Positions 10,547 to 58,464 of a DNA stretch of 64,000 bases are shown one piece after another (position 1 is the stretch's first letter; each line of letters starts with the position of its first letter). This DNA comes from Thermoleophilia bacterium. GTDB taxonomy: Bacteria; Actinomycetota; Thermoleophilia; BMS3ABIN01. The notes under the pieces are model-generated. The model made no database searches. It was not told the DNA's origin and saw only the letters and a program-made list of their open reading frames with translations. The DNA is taken from NCBI GenBank assembly GCA_014874265.1, contig JACWAM010000109.1:4808-68807 (forward strand). The letters run 5' to 3'. Position numbers and translations under genes: made by a program.

Positions 10547-11971
10547 ATGGCCCCCCCGAAAGATAAAGCGGGCAAATCCCGGCAGGCGGCGCTCCGGTCG
10601 CTGCCATCGGTGGAGGAGCTGCTCGAGACGGAGGCGCTCAAGTCAGCGATGACGGCGCATGGCCGCGGCCTGGTGGTGCAGTCGGCGCGGGCTGTCATCG
10701 GCCGGCTGCGTCAGGACATCATGTCGGGAAAAACGGTCCCGGATGAGATCCTGGCGCCGGAGCATCTGGGGCCCCTGATCCAGGATGAATCTGCCATTAT
10801 ATATAATCCTTCGCTCAAACGGCTTGTCAATGCCACGGGCGTCGTCGTCCACACCAATCTTGGCCGCTCCGTGCTGGCGCCGGAGGCGATTGAAGCCGTC
10901 GCGGCCGTGGCGGGCGCCTATTCCAATCTTGAATACAGCCTGGAAAAAGGCGCGCGCGGCTCGCGCCACAATCACATCGAACGGATCATCACGGCGCTGA
11001 CCGGCGCGGAGGCCGCCCTGGTTGTCAACAACAATGCCGCCGCCGTGCTGCTGGCCCTGTCCGCCTTTGCCGCCGACCGTGAGGTCGTTGTCTCGCGGGG
11101 AGAGTTGATCGAGATCGGCGGATCGTTCCGCATCCCGGAAATCATGGCTGCCAGTTCCGCCAGGCTGGTGGAGGTGGGCACCACCAACAAGACCAAGCTG
11201 GCTGACTATCAGAAAGCTATCGGAACATCAACATCAATGTTGCTGCACATCCACACCAGCAATTTTAAGGTTGTCGGCTTCACGGCGGAGGTTCCCATCG
11301 CCGAACTGTCTGCCCTCGCGCACGAACACGGGCTGATTGTAATGGACGACCTGGGCAGCGGCGCGCTTGCCGGGCCGCCGGTCCTCGCCGGCGAGCCTTC
11401 CGTCGCGGAAAGCCTCGCCGCCGGGGCCGACATCGTCACTTTTAGCGGTGACAAACTGCTCGGCGGGCCGCAAGCCGGCATCGTCGTCGGCAAGGCGGGA
11501 CCTGTCAAAAAAATGAAGTCCCATCCGATGGCTCGGGCCCTCCGGGTGGACAAGATGACACTGGCGGCGCTTCAAGCGACGCTATCCCTGTACCTGAAGC
11601 CGGAAGAAGCCATGAAACGGATCCCGACGCTGCGCATGCTCGGCGAGCCGGCAGCAGATATCGAAAACCGGGCAACGGAGCTGGCCGCCTGTCTGGCGGC
11701 GCTCGGAAGTGATCTTGCTACGCAAGTAGAGATGGCCGCGGCCAAGGTTGGCGGCGGGGCGTTGCCCCTGCTGGAGCTTGATTCGTATGTATGCGCTATC
11801 AGTCCGGCTTCGCTGACGGCGGAGCAACTGGCCGGCCGCCTCCGGCGAACGGACCCGCCGGTCGTCGGCCGCATTCACAAGGACCGGCTCCTGCTGGACG
11901 CGCGCACGATCCTGCCGGGGCAGACGGAAGAAATTGTCAGCGCCATGAAACAGGCGCTCAGGCAAAAATGA
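10547..11971 (+). CDS. selA: L-seryl-tRNA(Sec) selenium transferase.
   Basis: 474 aa. PLP-lysine context FSGDKLLGGPQAG. Matches SelA in length and domain order. Confidence 0.85.
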   Translation: MAPPKDKAGKSRQAALRSLPSVEELLETEALKSAMTAHGRGLVVQSARAVIGRLRQDIMSGKTVPDEILAPEHLGPLIQDESAIIYNPSLKRLVNATGVVVHTNLGRSVLAPEAIEAVAAVAGAYSNLEYSLEKGARGSRHNHIERIITALTGAEAALVVNNNAAAVLLALSAFAADREVVVSRGELIEIGGSFRIPEIMAASSARLVEVGTTNKTKLADYQKAIGTSTSMLLHIHTSNFKVVGFTAEVPIAELSALAHEHGLIVMDDLGSGALAGPPVLAGEPSVAESLAAGADIVTFSGDKLLGGPQAGIVVGKAGPVKKMKSHPMARALRVDKMTLAALQATLSLYLKPEEAMKRIPTLRMLGEPAADIENRATELAACLAALGSDLATQVEMAAAKVGGGALPLLELDSYVCAISPASLTAEQLAGRLRRTDPPVVGRIHKDRLLLDARTILPGQTEEIVSAMKQALRQK

Positions 11972-12056
11972 ATCAGCGGGGATACGCGTGAAACAGATCA
12001 ATCATCCATCATCAGGTTTTTAGGCGATTTGCCAGGATTGAAGCAAGCGGTTTGAA

Positions 12057-14000
12057 ATGGAAGAAATCCATCATCCATCATCCACCATCCACCATCTGGT
12101 TTTAGGCACCGCCGGCCACATCGATCACGGCAAAACGGCGCTCATCAAGGCGCTCACCGGTGTAGACACCGACCGCCTGCGCGAAGAGAAGGAACGGGGC
12201 ATCTCCATCGAGCTTGGCTACGCGGAGCTGGAACTGCCCTCGGGGACGACGATGAGCATCGTCGACGTCCCCGGCCATGAGAAGTTTGTCCGGAACATGG
12301 TCGCTGGGGCCAGCGGCATCGACATCTTTCTGCTGGCGGTCGCGGCCGACGACGGCGTCATGCCCCAGACGCGCGAGCACATGGCGGTCATCCAGTTGCT
12401 TGATATTCCCCAGGGTGTGGTGGCGATCACCAAAACCGATCTGGTCGATCCCGAGATGGCAGAGCTCGTCCAGACCGAGGTGGAAGACTTCCTGGCAGAG
12501 ACCCCTTACGCGGAAGCGCCGGTGGTGCCCGTCAGCTCGAAAACCGGCGAAGGCCTGCCACTGCTGCTGGGCCATCTGGAAGAGGCCGCCAGCCGGGCCA
12601 GCCGCGCGCACAAGGGGTCGCCATGGGCGCGCCTGCCAATCGACCGTGTCTTTACGCTGAAGGGGATTGGCACCGTGGTCACAGGCACGCTGTGGTCCGG
12701 CCAGATCTGCGCCGACGACAGCCTGCTCGTCCTTCCCGCGAGGCTGCCGGCGCGGGCCCGGTCAGTCCAGATCCATGACCGGAGCGTTCAATGCGCCGAG
12801 GCCGGTTACCGCGTGGCGGTAAACATGTCCGGGATCGACCGGGAGCAGCTGGCGCGCGGGCAGATGGTAACGAGGGGCGAAGGTCTTGAGACTACCTACA
12901 TGGTTGATGCGCGCGTTCGCCTGCTGGATTCGGCACCGAGGCTCAAATACGGAGCACAGGTCCGCTTCCACCATGGCACGGCGGACTACACGGCCAAGCT
13001 GATGTTCGCCGACCGGGACCGGCTGGGGCCCGGAGAGAGCTGCTTCGCGCAGATCAGGCTGAAGAAAAAGATCGTGCCGGCACCGGGTGACCGTTTCATC
13101 CTCCGGTCGCTGAGTCCAGTAAACACTATTGGCGGCGGCGTTGTCATCGATCCGGCCCCCCGGAAACACGGCCGGGGAGAAGAAATCGTCAGCCGTCTTG
13201 ACATTTTGGAAAAAGATGACCCAGTCCAGATCATCATGCTGCTGCTTCGAGAAGCGGGAGCAGACGGCATCAGCCTCGAGGAGCTGAAGCGCCGGAGTCA
13301 CCTGCAGGACACGGAAATCGATGCGGTGCTTGCCGGCAGGGAGCTTGCCTCCACCAGAGAATCAGGCGACATCGTTTACCTTTTTTTGCCGGAAATTGTC
13401 GCCGGGCTCGAAAAACAGGCTATTGAGGCGCTCTCTGAACACCAGAAAAAATTTCCCGCCGATCCCGGCATGAAGGGAGAAGAGCTTGCCCGCAGCGTGG
13501 GTCTGCCCCCCGCCGGGCCCGCCTTTAAAGCACTGATTGGAGGACTGCTCGGCCGTGGAGAGATCGCGCAAAAGCAGCAGCGCTACCTGCTCCCCAGCGC
13601 CGAGGCAAAGCTGTCACCGGCGCAGCGGGGCTACCTGGAAGCAGTACGGGAACGGCTGGCCAAAGCCGGCCCGGCGCCGCCGTCGATCCTGGAGCTGAGG
13701 GCCGCCACCGGAGCCGGCGATGTGGAGTTAAAACTGGTCCTTAAGCTTATGGAAGAGCGGGGCCAGGCGGTCAGGGTGAAGCCCGATCTTTTCTTTGCGC
13801 CGGCAGCAGTTGACAATGCGCGTAAAATAACGATTGACTGGTGCCAGGAAACAGGCAAGATCACTCTGGCTGAGCTGCGGGACCGGCTGGGAGTGAGCCG
13901 TAAATTTGCCCAGGCGCTCCTGGAGTATTTCGACCGCGCTGGCCTCACCCGCAGGATAGAGGATTACCGGGTTTTGCGAAAGTGGAAGGCGGATACTTGA
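12057..14000 (+). CDS. selB: Selenocysteine-specific translation elongation factor.
   Basis: [12 protein letters not shown]-loop, DVPGHE, an EF-Tu-like domain, and a long C-terminal winged-helix extension (647 aa). The first 12 codons run through a CATCCA repeat, so the start is uncertain. Confidence 0.85.
12070..12101. repeat. CATCCA/CCATCA hexamer tandem repeat overlapping the annotated 5' end of selB. The same motif in reverse complement lies at 26212..26256, at the 5' end of a radical SAM gene.
   Basis: catcatccatcatccaccatccaccatc (in frame it reads [10 protein letters not shown]). The reverse complement of 26221-26250 is ggtggatgatggattgtggatggtggat. Confidence 0.55.
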
Positions 14001-14084
14001 TCCTGGATGGCTGATACCGGATAAGCTAATATCATAATCCGGCCGGTTTCGCTTTAGCTTCGGTTTTAATTCCGTCTGTAACAG

Positions 14085-14180
14085 GGGAGGGCACGGGTCT
14101 GGTGGCCCAGCCGGTCTTCAAAACCGGTAAGTGGCGGTAACCCCGTCATTGGTAGGTTCGATTCCTACGCCTTCCCGCCA
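14085..14180 (+). tRNA. selC: tRNA-Sec (anticodon UCA).
   Basis: 8-bp acceptor stem (gggagggc/gccttccc with one G-U), anticodon loop cuUCAaa, long variable arm, T-loop ggTTCGAttcc, discriminator G plus CCA. 96 nt. Lies directly downstream of selA-selB. Confidence 0.8.
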
Positions 14181-14858: not shown

Positions 14859-17072
14859 CCTGAAATCGCCGCTGTCAGCCATCAGGCGGCCAGGCGGGGC
14901 AGCTTTGCCGAAGCCCCGGCTGGGCTGCCGGCGAGCGTCAGGGAGGCGCTGGCGCGCACCGGCGTAAAGACCCTTTATAGCCACCAGGCGGCAGCGCTCA
15001 GGCTGGCCCGGGAGGGTAAGAACGTGGTTGTCACCACGGCCAGCGCCAGCGGCAAATCCCTCTGTTTCAACCTGCCGGTTCTCAGTGAGCTGGCCGGAAA
15101 CCGCCACTCGCGGTCGCTTTACCTTTATCCCACGAAAGCGCTCACGCAAGACCAGGTGCGCAAGCTGCAGTCCTTCCGGCTCCCGTTCGCCAAACCCGGG
15201 ATTTACGATGGCGATACTCCCTCGGAGCAAAGGACACAAATCAGGAAGAAAGCCAATATTGTTCTGTCAAATCCGGATATGCTCCATGTTGGCATTCTAC
15301 CGCACCATGATTCCTGGGCGGACTTCTTTTTCAACCTGAAATACGTGATCATCGACGAAGCCCATTCTTACCGCGGCGTCTTCGGCTCCCACGTCGCCAA
15401 CGTCGTCCGCCGCCTCCGGCGTGTCTGCGCCCTCTACGGCGGCGAGCCGCGCTTCTTGCTGACGACGGCCACCATCGCCAATCCCGAGGAGCTGGCCGCA
15501 GCGCTAACGGGACTGGATCATGTTCTGGTGAGCCGTGACGGCTCCCCCCGCGGAGAGCGGCAGATAGTTTTCTGGAATCCGCCATTAATCGACAAATCGC
15601 TCGGCACCCGCAAGAGCGCGTTTGGCGAAGCGTCGATGCTGCTGGCCAGGCTGCTGCGAGGCGGTTCGCGCACGATTGTCTTTGCGCGGACCCGAAAAGG
15701 CGCTGAGCTCATCTACAGCTTCGCCCGGCGGCTGCTGGAGGAGGAGCCGGCGCTGGCGGCAGCGATTTCTCCCTACCGGGGAGGCTACACTCCCCGGCAG
15801 CGCCGTGAGATTGAAAAGGCATTGTTTGAAGGACGCCTTCTCGGCGTCGTCTCCACCAGCGCCCTGGAGCTGGGAATTGATGTGGGAGGCATCGACGCCG
15901 TCATCTCCGTCACCTTTCCGGGAACCGTGGCCAGCCTCCGGCAACAGTGGGGGCGCGCCGGCCGCGGCGGCGAGCAGAGCCTCGCTGTTTTCATCGCGGG
16001 GCTGGACGCCCTTGACCAGTACTTTATGTCGCATCCGGACCAGCTGCTCGAGCGCGACCCCGAGGCGGCAATTCTGGATTTTACCAATGAGCAGATTTTT
16101 AACAGCCACCTGGGCGCCGCCGCGTTTGAAACGCCGCTGACTCCGGCCGATGAGCGGTATTTCGGACCGAAACTGCCGGCGGCTGCCGCCTCTCTGGCAA
16201 CAGCGGGCGCTCTCCGGCAAAAAGACGGCAATTTCGTGTGGGCGCGTCCGGACTTTCCCGCCGCCTCTATTTCACTGCGCTCATCATCGGCTGACTCTTT
16301 TGCCATCGTCCAGGAAGACACTGGCGCGGTCATCGGCGAGGTGGAGGCGGAGCGCGCCTTCATATTTGTGCATCCGGGAGCGATCTACCTGCATATGGGC
16401 GAGACATTTCAGGTGGTCAGCCTCGATCTGGCCGCCCGGGTGGCGCTGGTGCGGCCGGTTCTGGTTGATTTCTATACCCAGCCCAAAAAGGAGACCAGCG
16501 TGGAGATCGAGGAGCCGCTGCTGGCGCGCACGGCCGGTGACGTCAAGCTTTCTTTTGGCCGGCTGCTGGTCACCGAGCGGGTAATCGCATATCAGAAAAA
16601 ACTGTTGGCAGACAACCAGGTGCTGGAGATTGTCGACCTGGAGCTACCCCAGCAGACGTTTGCGACCGAGGGCCTCTGGTTCTGGCTGCCTGAAGAAATA
16701 TACGGTAAGATCGAGCCCCGCTGCCTGCTCGGCGCCGTGCATGCGGCCGAGCACGGGTTGATTGCTCTTTTGCCGTTATTTGCCATGTGCGACAGGTGGG
16801 ACATTGGCGGACTTTCCACGGGGATGCATTGGCAGACCGGAGGGCCCTCGATATTCGTTTACGACGGACATCCGGGAGGCATCGGCATCACCCGCGCCGG
16901 CTTTGACGAGTTTGAAGGGCTGGCCGCCGCGGCCCTGAAGCTCATCAGCTGCTGCCCGTGCGAATCCGGATGCCCGTCATGTATACAATCACCCAAATGC
17001 GGGAATCTGAATGAGCCGCTGAGCAAGGAAGGGGCGATCGCGATACTGAAGGGGATTTCAAAAAGTTTCTAG
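14859..17072 (+). CDS. DEAD/DEAH-box helicase with C-terminal DUF1998 (MrfA/YprA-like). Start codon unresolved.
   Basis: Q-motif YSHQ, Walker A TASASGKS, DEAH, and a C-terminal MCDRWDIGG...CPCESGCPSC (DUF1998 Zn finger). There is no ATG/GTG/TTG in frame between the stop at 14787 and the GTG at 15024. A 5' end near 14859 (CTG) is a guess. Confidence 0.7.
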   Translation, partial: PEIAAVSHQAARRGSFAEAPAGLPASVREALARTGVKTLYSHQAAALRLAREGKNVVVTTASASGKSLCFNLPVLSELAGNRHSRSLYLYPTKALTQDQVRKLQSFRLPFAKPGIYDGDTPSEQRTQIRKKANIVLSNPDMLHVGILPHHDSWADFFFNLKYVIIDEAHSYRGVFGSHVANVVRRLRRVCALYGGEPRFLLTTATIANPEELAAALTGLDHVLVSRDGSPRGERQIVFWNPPLIDKSLGTRKSAFGEASMLLARLLRGGSRTIVFARTRKGAELIYSFARRLLEEEPALAAAISPYRGGYTPRQRREIEKALFEGRLLGVVSTSALELGIDVGGIDAVISVTFPGTVASLRQQWGRAGRGGEQSLAVFIAGLDALDQYFMSHPDQLLERDPEAAILDFTNEQIFNSHLGAAAFETPLTPADERYFGPKLPAAAASLATAGALRQKDGNFVWARPDFPAASISLRSSSADSFAIVQEDTGAVIGEVEAERAFIFVHPGAIYLHMGETFQVVSLDLAARVALVRPVLVDFYTQPKKETSVEIEEPLLARTAGDVKLSFGRLLVTERVIAYQKKLLADNQVLEIVDLELPQQTFATEGLWFWLPEEIYGKIEPRCLLGAVHAAEHGLIALLPLFAMCDRWDIGGLSTGMHWQTGGPSIFVYDGHPGGIGITRAGFDEFEGLAAAALKLISCCPCESGCPSCIQSPKCGNLNEPLSKEGAIAILKGISKSF

Positions 17073-17179
17073 TTTCTTGTGTCTGGTTGCAGGTTTTCGT
17101 TCCAGGTTCTGATGAAAAACTATGAACCAGAAACCGGAAACGCGAAACCGGTAATTTATTTTCTTATGGATAGAAGTTA

Positions 17180-17650
17180 ATGAAAGATGTTAAGTATATT
17201 TCCGTGATTGGAGCCGGCGAGTGTGACGCAGGGACAGCCCGGATGGCGAAAGAAGTGGGCAGGCTGATCGCCCGGGCCGGCGCGGTTCTGGTTTGTGGCG
17301 GCATGGGCGGCGTCATGGAAGCGGCCTGCCGCGGAGCCAAGGGCGCGGGCGGCACCACCATTGGCATCCTGCCGGGGCTGGACCGCCGGGATGCGAATGA
17401 ATGGCTGGACTATTCTGTTTGCACCGGCATCGGGCATGCGCGCAACCTGGCTGTTGCCGCCAGCGGAGCCGCAGTCATCGCGATCGGCGGTGAATTTGGA
17501 ACGCTGTCAGAAATAGGACTTGCCCGCAAATGCGGGCGGCCGGTTATCACGCTGGAAAGCTGGGAGATTAAGAAAGACGCCGGCACCCCTCCGGGTGTGA
17601 CCCCGGCAGCGACGCCGGCAGAAGCCGTCAGGATGGCTCTTGATCAATGA
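17180..17650 (+). CDS. TIGR00725/LOG-like (SLOG) Rossmann-fold protein.
   Basis: 156 aa. GxGxxG-like CGGMGGVMEA, and a PGxxGTxxE-like GGEFGTLSEI motif typical of the LOG/DprA-like superfamily. Confidence 0.5.
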   Translation: MKDVKYISVIGAGECDAGTARMAKEVGRLIARAGAVLVCGGMGGVMEAACRGAKGAGGTTIGILPGLDRRDANEWLDYSVCTGIGHARNLAVAASGAAVIAIGGEFGTLSEIGLARKCGRPVITLESWEIKKDAGTPPGVTPAATPAEAVRMALDQ

Positions 17651-17721: not shown

Positions 17722-17750
17722 TTGTCAAAAGATTGTCGACATGATATGCT
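17722..17750 (+). promoter_or_regulatory. Sigma-70-like promoter for small-peptide gene 1.
   Basis: TTGTCA (17722-17727), then 17 nt, then TATGCT (17745-17750). It lies about 70 nt upstream of the GTG at 17822. Confidence 0.45.
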
Positions 17751-17821
17751 CTTTTTCTCAGACGGAAGGGGTGGGCGCCCTGGGTTTCAGAAAAAGAGGC
17801 AAGCCTGGGAGAGGAGAAAAA

Positions 17822-17944
17822 GTGGACAAGCAGCCGAAAAAACCGTATGAGAAGCCAGAATTGGTCAAGCACCTGAATCTGAAGGACATAACCTTTGAGT
17901 GCTCTGGCTGGTCTTGCAGCGTCACTGTGCCTCCGGCCCCCTAA
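17822..17944 (+). CDS. Small peptide (40 aa), paralog of the 41-aa peptide at 56649..56774. Possible RiPP precursor or small regulatory protein.
   Basis: GTG start 6 nt after the GGAGAGGAG Shine-Dalgarno. Translation: VDKQPKKPYEKPELVKHLNLKDITFECSGWSCSVTVPPAP. About 85% identical over 34 residues to the second copy. Followed by a bidirectional terminator. Confidence 0.6.
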   Translation: MDKQPKKPYEKPELVKHLNLKDITFECSGWSCSVTVPPAP

Positions 17945-17974: not shown

Positions 17975-18002
17975 AAAAAAGGCGGCGATCAGCCGCTTTT
18001 TT
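17975..18002. terminator. Bidirectional rho-independent terminator (A6 - GC hairpin - T6).
   Basis: aaaaaa-gGCGGC-gatca-GCCGC-tttttt. It lies between the peptide gene (+) and the hemC 3' end (-). Confidence 0.7.
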
Positions 18003-55243: not shown

Positions 55244-56197
55244 GTGAAGAACAACGCGCGCGAGAACATTATTGGTAGCGGTGCGCCCAGGCGCTCCGGC
55301 TTTACCATCGCCGGCAAAATCATGTTCGCGAACTGTGGCATCGTGGCCGTGGGCGCATTCATCGGCACCTGGCTGGCTCAGGCGCATGCCGAAGAATCCG
55401 CTTACATCCTGGGAACCGTGCTTTTCTCCGGGGGACTGCTTATCAGCCTCCCGGTTAACTATCTGGCCGCCAGAACTGCATTAAAGCCGCTCCGGCAGCT
55501 GGCCGAATCCATGGAAGCCGTGCGCCAGGGAAACCTGGAGACAGCCGTTGATATCCGGCTCGCCGACCCGCAAATAAAGAGGCTGTCGTCGAGTTACAAT
55601 ACGATGCTGCAATGGATCAGGGAGGACCGGAAGACCATTGAGAAGCTGTCCCTGATCGACCCTCTCACAGAGGTGGGAAATACCCGGGCGCTCAACCGGG
55701 GCCTGGAAACGGAAATTGCCCGCATTGACCGGTACGGCAACAACATGCCGGCAGCGTTTTCCTTTTTGATTATCGATCTGGACAACTTTAAGGAGATCAA
55801 CGATACGTACGGGCACCTGACCGGTGATGCCGTGCTAAAAGAAATGGCGGACCTGCTTCAGAAAAGTCTGCGCAAGACAGACACGACGCTGGCAGCCCTG
55901 AAACATTATCGCTTTGGCGGTGACGAATTCGTTGTCATCGCCCCCCACACCTCGGTGGCGGGCGCTCGTCTGCTTGTGGAGAGGCTTAACCGGACTATCT
56001 GCAGTTATCCGTTCCGTACGCACGACGGCGCTTTGCTCAGCAAGTCCCCTACCGGTCCCTTGAGCGCTTCGATTGGCTGCGCCAGCTATCCGGAAGAGAC
56101 CACAAATGCTGATGATCTGATGGACCTGGCTGACAAGAGAATGTACGCGATGAAGGAAGGCCGGTCCCGATCGAGGTTCTTCGAGCAGGCTGGTTAG
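55244..56197 (+). CDS. Membrane-anchored diguanylate cyclase (HAMP-like linker plus GGDEF).
   Basis: RFGGDEF active site and I-site RxxD context. N-terminal TM helices. Confidence 0.75.
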   Translation: MKNNARENIIGSGAPRRSGFTIAGKIMFANCGIVAVGAFIGTWLAQAHAEESAYILGTVLFSGGLLISLPVNYLAARTALKPLRQLAESMEAVRQGNLETAVDIRLADPQIKRLSSSYNTMLQWIREDRKTIEKLSLIDPLTEVGNTRALNRGLETEIARIDRYGNNMPAAFSFLIIDLDNFKEINDTYGHLTGDAVLKEMADLLQKSLRKTDTTLAALKHYRFGGDEFVVIAPHTSVAGARLLVERLNRTICSYPFRTHDGALLSKSPTGPLSASIGCASYPEETTNADDLMDLADKRMYAMKEGRSRSRFFEQAG

Positions 56198-56648: not shown

Positions 56649-56774
56649 TTACGGCGCCGGCGGAACCACTACGCTGCACTGCCAGCCCGAGCACTCGAAG
56701 GTGATTTCCTTCAGGTTCTCGTGCTTCACCAGCTCAGGCTTGGCATAGGGTTCCCGCGTTGTTTCTTTAGTCAT
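56649..56774 (-). CDS. Small peptide (41 aa), paralog of the peptide at 17822..17944.
   Basis: ATG preceded by a GAGGAG Shine-Dalgarno (6-nt spacing). Translation: MTKETTREPYAKPELVKHENLKEITFECSGWQCSVVVPPAP. Two strong palindromic hairpins (56609..56626, 56571..56600) lie just downstream on the minus strand. Confidence 0.6.
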   Translation of the reverse strand: MTKETTREPYAKPELVKHENLKEITFECSGWQCSVVVPPAP

Positions 56775-57108
56775 TGCGGTTTCTCCTCTTTTCTTTGCCT
56801 TAATTGCCATTTTCCTGGTTCAGTGCCTAGGGATACGTATACGAGTTTCCGCACTCATCCTGGGCGCTCGCGGTGACGCTTGTGTGGAACCATGTTACGC
56901 CCGAAGGGATGTTGTACTTGACAGTCACCGTGGCCGACAGGCCGGTGGCGATATTGGTCGCCGCCGAAGGTATGCCGGAGCTGACGGTGACGCCGTTGTT
57001 GCTGGCGCTGCCGGTGAACTGGGCGCCCGCCGCATTCGGGCTGGTGGCATGGCCGCTGCTTTGAAATTTAACGGCAATCCCCTCAGCTCGCGCAAAAAGC
57101 CAAGATAT

Positions 57109-58464
57109 TTATTTGCCAATCCGTCGTTCACGGGACGAAGGAATGGCTGCTTCCTCGCGGTACTTGGCGACGGTCCGGCGAGAGATGCTGATGCCATCCT
57201 GATTAAGAATTACTGTCAATTTTTGATCCGATAGCGGACGGCGGCGGTCTTCCGCCGCGACCAGCTCTTGCAGGCGTTTCTTCACGGCGGTGGCGGCCAG
57301 CGGACCTTCAGCCGCCCGGTAGCCCGCTGAGAAGAAATAACGCATCTCGAAGACCCCGTAGGGGGTGCTCATATACTTGCCGACGATGGCGCGGCTGATC
57401 GTAGAAGGATGCACATCCAGCTGCGCCGCCACATCAGCCAGACTCAACGGCGCCAGCGCGCCGGGACCGCGCTGAAAAAAATTCTGCTGCGCCGCGGCCA
57501 CAGCCCGGGCCACCTTTGTCATGGTAACCCGCCGCTGCTCGACATCGCGGATTAGTTTTCTCGCCTCGGCAATCCTGGAAGTGATGTAGCCGGCGGTTTC
57601 GGTATCGCGGTCGCTGGCGCCCGCGTCCGCCGCAATTTTTTGATACTGTTTGTTAATCCTGAGCCTGGGAAGCAACTCCCGGTTGGCCAGGACCTCAACG
57701 CCTTCGCTGCCAGGATGGACATAAACGTCCGGGATGATCGCCGCCGGCGGCTCGTCGCTGTCAAATAACGATCCCGGCGATGGATTCAGGCCGCGAATTA
57801 TTTCCATGGCTTTTTCCATCTGCGCCGGCGAAGCATTTAGTTCGCGGGCGATTTCCCTGGTTTTGCCCTTGCCGGCGGCCGCCAGATGATCTTTAACGAT
57901 TACCTGCGGAAGGCGGCCGGCGCCCATCTGGCGCAGCTGGATCAGGAGGCACTCCGGCAGCGAGCGGGCCCCGACTCCGGGAGGGTCAAAGCCCTGAACG
58001 ACGGCGAGCGATTTAAGTACGGCGGGGGCCGGGTTGCCGAGCGCCGCGGCGATATCCTCAACTGAATCGCGCAGGTAGCCGCGGCTGTCCAGGCTGGCGA
58101 TAATGGCCAGCCCCGGCCTCATTTGAGACGCCGGCAGATTTTCCAGAGCCAGTTGCAAATTCAGGTGATCCGTGAGAGTAACCGGGGTCGAGACAAGCTC
58201 GGATGAGTCTAGCGGGGGCGCTGCCGAGCGGCGGCGCTTGCCGGCACGGTTAGCGGCTTCCAGATCCTGCCAGAGCTTTCTGGCGCCGGCGGCGGTGTCA
58301 GGGCCCGCGGGCTCGGGGATTTCCAGGACGGGGTTCTCTTCCAGGTTTTTCTGAACCAGCTCCATCAGCTCGGGGGCGGCCATTCGGAGAATTTTGAGGC
58401 TTTGATAGAGGCGTGGGGAAAGCTTCTGCTCCTGCCGCGCCGATGGGGAAGGCCTGATCTTCAT
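57109..58464 (-). CDS. rpoN: RNA polymerase sigma-54 factor.
   Basis: N-terminal activator-interaction region (LSPRLYQSLKIL), and the C-terminal RpoN box ARRTVAKYRE. Confidence 0.85.
   Translation of the reverse strand: MKIRPSPSARQEQKLSPRLYQSLKILRMAAPELMELVQKNLEENPVLEIPEPAGPDTAAGARKLWQDLEAANRAGKRRRSAAPPLDSSELVSTPVTLTDHLNLQLALENLPASQMRPGLAIIASLDSRGYLRDSVEDIAAALGNPAPAVLKSLAVVQGFDPPGVGARSLPECLLIQLRQMGAGRLPQVIVKDHLAAAGKGKTREIARELNASPAQMEKAMEIIRGLNPSPGSLFDSDEPPAAIIPDVYVHPGSEGVEVLANRELLPRLRINKQYQKIAADAGASDRDTETAGYITSRIAEARKLIRDVEQRRVTMTKVARAVAAAQQNFFQRGPGALAPLSLADVAAQLDVHPSTISRAIVGKYMSTPYGVFEMRYFFSAGYRAAEGPLAATAVKKRLQELVAAEDRRRPLSDQKLTVILNQDGISISRRTVAKYREEAAIPSSRERRIGK

Follow-up and report, generated by a model that had tools for sequence, protein, structure and literature searches.

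The 64,000-nucleotide (nt) stretch of a Thermoleophilia bacterium contig analysed here (JACWAM010000109.1, hereafter the window) carries two homologous genes for peptides of 40 and 41 amino acids (aa), called copy 1 and copy 2. There is good support for placing both in a multi-copy, lineage-restricted family of peptides of ~40 residues, so far undescribed, whose members come from uncultured Thermoleophilia-like Actinomycetota. An initial annotation, made from the letters alone, had proposed a new small-peptide family, possibly precursors of peptides made by the ribosome and modified after translation (RiPPs). The coordinates, strands, lengths and translations it gave for the two open reading frames (ORFs) are exact, and both have the near-consensus Shine-Dalgarno (SD) sites it described. 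The features of the two genes are as follows, with L001, L009 and similar handles denoting related loci:

17722-17750, plus strand: promoter-like TTGTCA-17-TATGCT with extended -10 TG, sigma-70-like, upstream of copy 1 (consensus match only)
17808-17816, plus strand: SD site of copy 1, GGAGAGGAG, 5 nt ahead of the GTG
17822-17944, plus strand: peptide gene copy 1, GTG start, 40 aa, translation VDKQPKKPYEKPELVKHLNLKDITFECSGWSCSVTVPPAP
17822-17896, plus strand: predicted leader of copy 1, residues 1-25
17897-17941, plus strand: predicted core of copy 1, ECSGWSCSVTVPPAP
17942-17944, plus strand: stop codon of copy 1
17976-18002, no strand assigned: A6-GCGGCGATCAGCCGC-T6 hairpin between the convergent copy 1 and hemC
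56788-56783, minus strand: SD site of copy 2, GAGGAG, 8 nt ahead of the ATG, same letters in L009 and L001
56649-56774, minus strand: peptide gene copy 2, ATG start, 41 aa, translation MTKETTREPYAKPELVKHENLKEITFECSGWQCSVVVPPAP
56697-56774, minus strand: predicted leader of copy 2, residues 1-26
56652-56696, minus strand: predicted core of copy 2, ECSGWQCSVVVPPAP
56649-56651, minus strand: stop codon of copy 2
56626-56609 and 56600-56571, minus strand: two GC-rich hairpins 3' of copy 2, kept in L009 and L001

From P-Y to the C-terminus the two peptides share 28 of 33 residues; they are near-identical as had been claimed, with a count slightly below the earlier figure of about 30 of 34. Searching the six-frame translation of the window with a hidden Markov model (HMM) of the family recovers copy 1 at E = 2e-24 and copy 2 at E = 3e-29, and no third copy. 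Between the copies, synonymous sites are saturated (proportion of synonymous differences, pS = 0.69), against a proportion of nonsynonymous differences (pN) of 0.13. Across 69 family members the median pairwise ratio of nonsynonymous to synonymous change (dN/dS) is 0.15, invariant Pro, Thr, Val and Leu positions draw on all four codons, and copy 2 differs from its orthologues in L009 and L001 by synonymous changes only. Every family member carries an SD site comparable to that of copy 1. Both ORFs are real coding genes under strong purifying selection. Rfam finds no RNA family, a hairpin in the 5' untranslated region of copy 1 is not significant (z = -1.1), and structure prediction of the peptide alone gives no fold.

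The transcription signals proposed for copy 1 hold as consensus matches. TTGTCA-17-TATGCT is a single match in its region against 0.1 expected, and the A6-hairpin-T6 element, as it sits between the convergent copy 1 and hemC, may be a bidirectional terminator that serves both genes. The two hairpins downstream of copy 2 are as stable as had been stated (-58 kcal/mol, z = -6.3) but have no U-tract, and an intrinsic-terminator scan makes no call there. A monocistronic layout, also part of the initial annotation, fits copy 1; in relatives, the type to which copy 2 belongs comes second in a two-gene unit. The pair is likewise homologous, as the term duplicated implied, but copies 1 and 2 are two old paralogue types and no equivalent duplicates.

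Library scans find no Pfam or NCBIfam model that covers the peptides; the Ogr_Delta zinc finger (PF04606) scores 15.2 bits with copy 2 against a gathering threshold of 26.3 and does not hit copy 1. The window peptide is not on record in an exact-sequence look-up. A word-indexed search of 5.8 billion clusters yields 38 homologous clusters of 40-60 aa, all annotated as hypothetical, those named being labelled Thermoleophilia or Actinomycetota metagenome-assembled genomes (MAGs). An exhaustive profile search of 1.84 billion representative proteins returns only 60 hits at E <= 1e-3, in line with the earlier view of a new, unannotated family. Scanning one genome per GTDB species identifies 72 loci, with 3-5 or more copies per genome, and together with metagenome contigs collected by a degenerate DNA pattern the homologous loci number more than 130, each with an SD site. 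The full-length family is almost confined to Thermoleophilia, Gaiellales or "Actinomycetes" MAGs and BMS3Abin01. Contigs of MAG FK_Sedi_B_Bin.151 are ~92-94% identical in DNA to the window, L029 corresponding to the copy 1 region and L009 to the copy 2 region. The family consensus is ...Y-A-K-P-E-L-V-K-H-E-N-L-K-E-I-T-F-E-C-P-x-W-Q-C-S-V-x-V-P-P-P-P, with Y, P, T, F, C, W, C, S, V, V and P invariant.

More distant paralogues from the same MAGs retain both the leader and I-T-F-x4-W-x-C-S-hydrophobic, often lack the first Cys and often have Asp/His-rich tails, which suggest possible metal binding. In this wider family C-S is the most conserved element of the core, and nearly all members have a second Cys, which lies 5 residues upstream or 10-13 residues downstream. 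Asp/His-tailed examples lie at L081 9001-9144, L083 9001-9168 and L084 9001-9147 (e.g. ...WTCSIGDDDDDHDHGGRDD), near genes for Usp, a conserved 353-386-aa lipoprotein, DUF2769 and Rieske proteins. No maturase is present in these neighbourhoods.

All-against-all clustering of the flanking ORFs reveals one dominant neighbour cluster: 55 of 70 peptide genes have a member of it directly upstream in the same orientation. The gap between the two genes is 10-81 nt in 53 pairs (median ~51), each peptide gene having its own SD site, and the pairing is replicated in 51 of 62 metagenome contigs. The upstream proteins are 153-1009 aa long, have N-terminal signal peptides and share only a C-terminal domain of ~110 aa, referred to here as DOM. 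It matches no Pfam or NCBIfam family and has the consensus ...KP-x-LSLS-x4-YWAS-x-ADY-x3-LSVD-x-x-I-x-N...TNGVT...KYNVP-x-GV-x-SF-x-T...D-x-CG-x-x-YTYP. The passengers that carry DOM are diverse and extracytoplasmic, including rhodanese (9 of 40), Big_13, NosD/beta-helix, FG-GAP, EB_dh and multihaem cytochromes c, and many have no Pfam hit at all. DOM itself is modelled confidently as an immunoglobulin (Ig)-like beta-sandwich, and among its closest solved folds are ear, MSP and PapD-like domains that bind short peptides. N-terminal subtypes of the peptide co-vary with C-terminal subtypes of DOM, which implies that several DOM-peptide pairs are old and co-inherited; one Asp/His-tailed paralogue also adjoins a DOM protein. 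The gene pairing of the peptide with a new secreted Ig-like domain is thus strong, replicated and well supported, and is the strongest functional clue to the family. It was absent from the initial annotation, and the searchable literature, including that on SynChlorMet, PF14907, HprK-related kinases and RiPPs of Thermoleophilia, yielded no description of the peptide family or of the DOM pairing. A fusion of DOM and peptide by frameshift or read-through was considered and rejected, because frame offsets vary between loci and each peptide has its own SD site. Downstream proteins of 199 aa (L001) and 203 aa (L004) were dropped as candidates for a universal partner, since they are not homologous.

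Within the window, DOM is represented only by a truncated remnant at copy 2:

56827-57078, minus strand: start-less DOM gene remnant, last ~70-83 codons plus stop, abutting the rpoN 3' end, DOM HMM E = 1e-24

By tblastn this remnant is 72% identical to the C-terminus of a 637-aa protein of L001. Copy 2 represents the DOM-associated type, which in L009 and L001 follows a DOM protein of 632-642 aa; farther upstream of it, these loci encode a kinase discussed below, a lipoprotein called c4tail and a second DOM-peptide pair. The copy 2 gene, its SD site and its hairpins are ~97% conserved relative to L009 and L001, and the DNA homology of the window to both loci ends at about 57030-57070. Copy 1 belongs to a stand-alone type, type B (MKKxAYEKPVL... 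in other genomes), which never occurs with a DOM gene. At least 9 diverged genomes have it in convergent orientation to hemC-hemA-(sirohaem-synthase-like)-ccsA-resB, and the copy 1 orthologue in L029 lies in full synteny at ~93% nucleotide identity.

The N-terminal half of the peptides resembles the leader of lasso peptide precursors. Taking Glu27 of copy 2 as position +1, Tyr, Pro and Leu stand at -17, -14 and -12 and Thr at -2 (Y10, P13, L15, T25); the equivalent residues of copy 1, relative to E26, are Y9, P12, L14 and T24. These leader positions are invariant or nearly so across the family. Leaders of lasso precursors have YxxPxL from -17 to -12 and, at -2, Thr or in rare cases Ile or Val (PMC10368454), and both copies have this motif with exactly this spacing. 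The genome scan further detected leader-only matches joined to unrelated cores in MAGs of Nitrospira, Clostridia, Bacillota, Anaerolineae, Eisenbacteria and Gemmatimonadetes. Examples of these peptides, and of the cassettes beside such peptides, are:

Anaerolineae/Chloroflexi, leader-sharing peptide: MYVKPELVKHDELKQVTFSSH
Nitrospira, leader-sharing peptide: ...YVKPELVKHELLRDVTAIQLSRVVYQRNA
Clostridia, leader-sharing peptide: ...AYEKPELVKHETLKEVTMSSRSRGGCSTCRGDEDEDDDD
Eisenbacteria/Gemmatimonadetes, leader-sharing peptide: ...PYEKPELVRHGNLKEITMVSFTPGPPPG...
L078 6685-10553, L072 8001-13477, L077 6668-14411 and L074 461-6926: cyclase-less cassettes in Nitrospira, Clostridia, Anaerolineales and Bacillota MAGs

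Beside the leader-sharing peptides, these other-phylum cassettes encode a PqqD protein (B1) that matches the lasso-type PqqD chaperone best, a B2 protease scoring above the cut-off of the NCBIfam lasso B2 model NF033537 (51.4 bits, cut-off 33), an HPr-kinase-like kinase and a PF14907 nucleotidyltransferase. In some of them a radical SAM enzyme (SPASM or B12-binding) or an ABC exporter is encoded as well. A cyclase of the asparagine-synthetase type was seen in none, and the B1/B2/kinase/nucleotidyltransferase cassettes of Nitrospira, Clostridia and Anaerolineae look like an uncharacterised RiPP class. FGE-sulfatase genes join some of the cyclase-less cassettes, and their peptides can be tiny: MYVKPELVKHDELKQVTFSSH would leave a core of SSH only. 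Sequence comparison thus gives good support to the N-terminal half of the window peptides being a lasso-type leader that is homologous to the leaders in B1/B2/kinase cassettes, beyond mere likeness of pattern. Such a leader is of the kind read by PqqD-type recognition proteins and HPr-kinase-related peptide kinases.

The predicted core runs from residue 26 or 27 to the end and comprises 15-16 residues, E-C-x-x-W-x-C-S-V-x-V-P-P-x-P, in more detail E-C-(S/P)-x-W-(Q/S)-C-S-V.... Lasso cores begin with a small residue and place Asp or Glu at position 7, 8 or 9. The family core starts with Glu, which a few members replace by Gly, Ala or Gln, and every member has C-S-V at positions 7-9. A lasso ring is impossible because there is no carboxylate at these positions to close the macrolactam. 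The core is therefore best described as conserved and non-lasso, an assignment that its sequence supports well.

No lasso cyclase is present among the 20 ORFs flanking both window copies, in the Pfam annotation of related loci or among recurrent neighbour clusters. In phmmer searches with other-phylum proteins as queries, those for PqqD and B2 from Nitrospira and Clostridia, PqqD, B2 and nucleotidyltransferase are absent from ~65 Actinomycetota loci, the window and 63 independent metagenome contigs, and the same queries match in every other-phylum locus. The PF14907 nucleotidyltransferase is found in other-phylum loci only and in no family locus. Pfam scans of neighbouring genes in the window and related loci contain no LanB/LanC, LanM, LanKC or LanL. 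Neither a kinase nor B1, B2 or nucleotidyltransferase is encoded in the window.

The sole recurrent enzyme of the family is an HPrK-like kinase, found at 15 genome loci and on 7 metagenome contigs, always within DOM-peptide arrays. It matches the kinase of the Nitrospira cassette at E 1e-27 to 1e-35. All of its best family matches lie below the curated cut-offs of 125-200 bits (HprK_rel_A 65 bits, HprK_rel_B 48, ScmC 33); its ScmC score, set against a cut-off of 125, places it outside SynChlorMet. A profile search of the PDB recovers the HPrK P-loop core only, and hhalign against PqqD gives no RiPP recognition element (RRE)-like domain in the N-terminal half (probability 0.2). HPr-kinase homologues are known to phosphorylate linear lasso precursors with the assistance of B1, after which a PF14907-type enzyme glycosylates the phosphate (PMC8498205; PMC10368454). 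The array order in ~15 loci is DOM, peptide, c4tail, kinase, DOM, peptide, with c4tail always between the peptide gene and the kinase gene (L025 2043-2618, L001 8315-8914 and a further 13 loci). This lipoprotein has a lipobox, a long low-complexity Gly/Ser/Thr-rich region and the C-terminus ...GGW-x-x-GGI-x-I-x-VP-x-x-P, which resembles the peptide tail W-x-C-S-V-x-V-P-P-x-P.

These results bear on what had been proposed about maturation. The leader-like N-terminal half and Cys/Ser/Trp core of the initial annotation correspond to the lasso-type YxxPxL...T-x motif and the core that follows it. The RiPP-precursor idea is strengthened, because the spacing is exactly that of lasso leaders and the leader is homologous to those beside PqqD, B2, kinase and nucleotidyltransferase genes. 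No B1, B2 or cyclase was found at the ~130 related loci. That no tailoring enzyme adjoins either copy in the window was correct. The suggested radical SAM, YcaO or LanM partner finds no support at any of these loci, where only the HPrK-like kinase recurs.

Several further genes near the two copies deserve mention. Directly upstream of copy 1, 15024-17650 (plus strand) encodes an MrfA-like DEAD-box helicase whose C-terminal MZB domain is Zn-binding. The gene for an SLOG cluster4/LOG-like protein comes next, and several genomes keep both genes ahead of the stand-alone type (clusters c41 and c49). Between copy 2 and a VTT/DedA gene lies a HAMP-GGDEF diguanylate cyclase gene (55244-56197, plus strand); as this gene is not at the same position in L009 and L001, there is an insertion or deletion difference of ~1 kb. 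A full-length sigma-54 gene (rpoN, 57109-58464, minus strand) is present, while the closest relatives of the window are labelled Actinomycetota/Thermoleophilia MAGs. Sigma-54 is generally considered absent from Actinobacteria. Its presence here may be a notable lineage trait, or else it hints at mis-binning or at a chimeric join in the neighbouring breakpoint (~57030-57110). The window also contains a complete selenocysteine-insertion locus (10547-14180) composed of selA (10547-11971), selB (12057-14000) and tRNA-Sec (14085-14180, anticodon TCA).

We favour a reading in which the family consists of leader-bearing, RiPP-like precursors that work with DOM proteins; the chemistry and function it entails are inferred, and we judge it about as likely to be right as wrong. 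The mechanism is only partly established. The unstructured peptide would be bound via its leader and then phosphorylated by the HPrK-related enzyme, most likely at the invariant Ser of W-x-C-S, as homology and co-occurrence suggest; in relatives this enzyme is encoded between peptide genes, and the window is without it. The leader may be cut off after Thr-Phe by machinery encoded elsewhere. Once exported, the product would act stoichiometrically with the DOM borne by the secreted protein whose gene lies just upstream; its probable role is that of a short-peptide ligand contributing a beta-strand. For this last step, the pairing of the genes is shown and the binding is inferred. Taken further, the peptide could be the obligatory 1:1 partner (ligand, cap or anchor) of DOM in a two-component surface system, in which a leader-matured, kinase-modified peptide serves dozens of unrelated exported enzymes and cytochromes of anaerobic uncultured Actinomycetota. 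RiPP-type machinery would then have been recruited for protein sorting or assembly and not for antibiotics, with c4tail as a possible tether. We consider this extended version speculative and rather improbable. A number of observations weigh against the favoured reading. The ~130 W-x-C-S family loci have no nearby B1, B2, nucleotidyltransferase, cyclase, radical SAM enzyme or exporter, and the kinase itself is missing from the window and from most family loci. Leader and core are both almost invariant, which is atypical of antibiotic-type RiPPs and fits an unprocessed small protein equally well. The peptide also has no export signal and DOM is extracytoplasmic, so that an exporter would be needed for the two to meet.

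The main rival is an unprocessed small cytoplasmic protein, an adaptor, holdase or regulator dedicated to the DOM protein encoded upstream, for example one that binds nascent DOM before Sec export or reports DOM synthesis, the apparent leader being an extended beta-strand binding motif. In its favour are the conservation of the whole sequence and not of the leader alone, the missing signal peptide, the ~130 loci devoid of protease, RRE or exporter, and the 1:1 gene pairing, whose short gaps suggest co-translation. Against it stand a leader with exact spacing and homology to those of peptides in bona fide B1/B2/kinase cassettes, and a peptide-kinase homologue that recurs in the arrays. Moreover, the stand-alone type B is conserved with no DOM gene at all, copy 2 has stayed intact and conserved in the window although its DOM gene there is destroyed, and no autonomous fold is predicted. 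We judge an unprocessed protein to be unlikely, if still a serious contender. The prominence of C-S in the wider family, the near-constant second Cys and the fact that the only recurrent enzyme is a Ser/Thr-type kinase would also accommodate a kinase-initiated, lanthipeptide-like product, in which the Ser of C-S is phosphorylated, eliminated to dehydroalanine and attacked by the second Cys to form a thioether; a plain Cys-Cys disulfide loop is a variant of this idea. However, the annotated neighbours include no phospholyase, LanC-like cyclase or LanB, LanM, LanKC or LanL domain, and the chemistry is purely conjectural, which makes this option quite improbable.

The surroundings of the stand-alone type point in another direction, namely to a small thiol, metal or haem peptide tied to cytochrome c biogenesis. 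Its hemC-hemA-ccsA-resB neighbourhood is kept in at least 9 genomes, the peptide has a CX4C plus His pattern, DOM carriers include multihaem cytochromes and EB_dh, NosD-like or rhodanese proteins, and the Asp/His-rich tails of paralogues look metal-binding. Yet copy 1 is convergent with the hem operon and not co-transcribed with it, no CXXCH motif is present, the wider family conserves neither the first Cys nor the His, and the only Pfam hit, the Ogr_Delta zinc finger, reaches 15 bits against a cut-off of 26; we regard such a role as very unlikely. A genuine lasso precursor, with B1, B2 and C genes elsewhere in the genome, would explain the leader motif and its spacing as well as a kinase of the type known from phosphorylated lasso clusters. 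It is already contradicted by the core, invariably C-S-V without Asp or Glu at positions 7-9, and no asparagine-synthetase-type cyclase was seen near family members or in the other-phylum cassettes that share the leader; its probability is slight indeed. Chance open frames or non-coding repeats, an idea to which only the small size of the genes lends itself, are refuted by strong purifying selection at saturated synonymous divergence and by the more than 130 homologous loci, all with SD sites, and carry practically no weight.

If the favoured reading of leader-bearing precursors that act with DOM proteins is true, the leader and recognition logic of lasso peptides would extend to a non-lasso product. 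Such a product would stay conserved instead of diversifying, and it would be coupled genetically, one-to-one, with a new domain at the C-terminus of secreted proteins. RiPP-like peptides would then serve in structure or assembly, in contrast to their usual roles as antibiotics or signals. A multi-copy gene pair now annotated just as hypothetical, in an uncultured and poorly known actinobacterial lineage, would also receive a function.

Among known systems, the phosphorylated lasso clusters (paeninodin PadeA/PadeK, BsfA/BsfK, pseudomycoidin PsmA/PsmK/PsmN) are alike in leader motif, small unstructured precursor and, at a subset of the family loci, HPr-kinase-related kinase (PMC8498205; PMC10368454). 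In contrast to them, the family core has no macrolactam acceptor and is conserved instead of variable, no cyclase, B1, B2 or N gene is found nearby, and the genes are multi-copy and paired with a secreted-protein gene. The family kinase also matches HprK_rel_A, HprK_rel_B and ScmC, far below their cut-offs, and thereby recalls the SynChlorMet-type and HprK-related-kinase A/B cassettes (TIGR04248-04251, TIGR04352, TIGR04355), which are named after NCBIfam descriptions and belong with the in-silico systems of Haft. No target peptide is known to have been assigned to these cassettes. Like SynChlorMet, the other-phylum cassettes that share the leader combine a PqqD-like protein, an HPrK-like kinase and radical SAM/SPASM, whereas the Actinomycetota loci contain no ScmD/E/F equivalent, PqqD or radical SAM gene. 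Prochlorosins are encoded by many precursor genes scattered in the genome, are processed by one enzyme in trans and have hypervariable cores. The present family is similar in having several to many precursor paralogues per genome, mostly far from any modifying enzyme, and a conserved leader, but its core is nearly invariant and each copy is tied to a specific neighbouring protein gene. DOM, finally, resembles C-terminal sorting or anchoring modules such as the C-terminal domain of the type IX secretion system (T9SS), CARDB/Ig-like and WxL domains, as a beta-sandwich of ~110 aa at the extreme C-terminus of many unrelated exported passengers.

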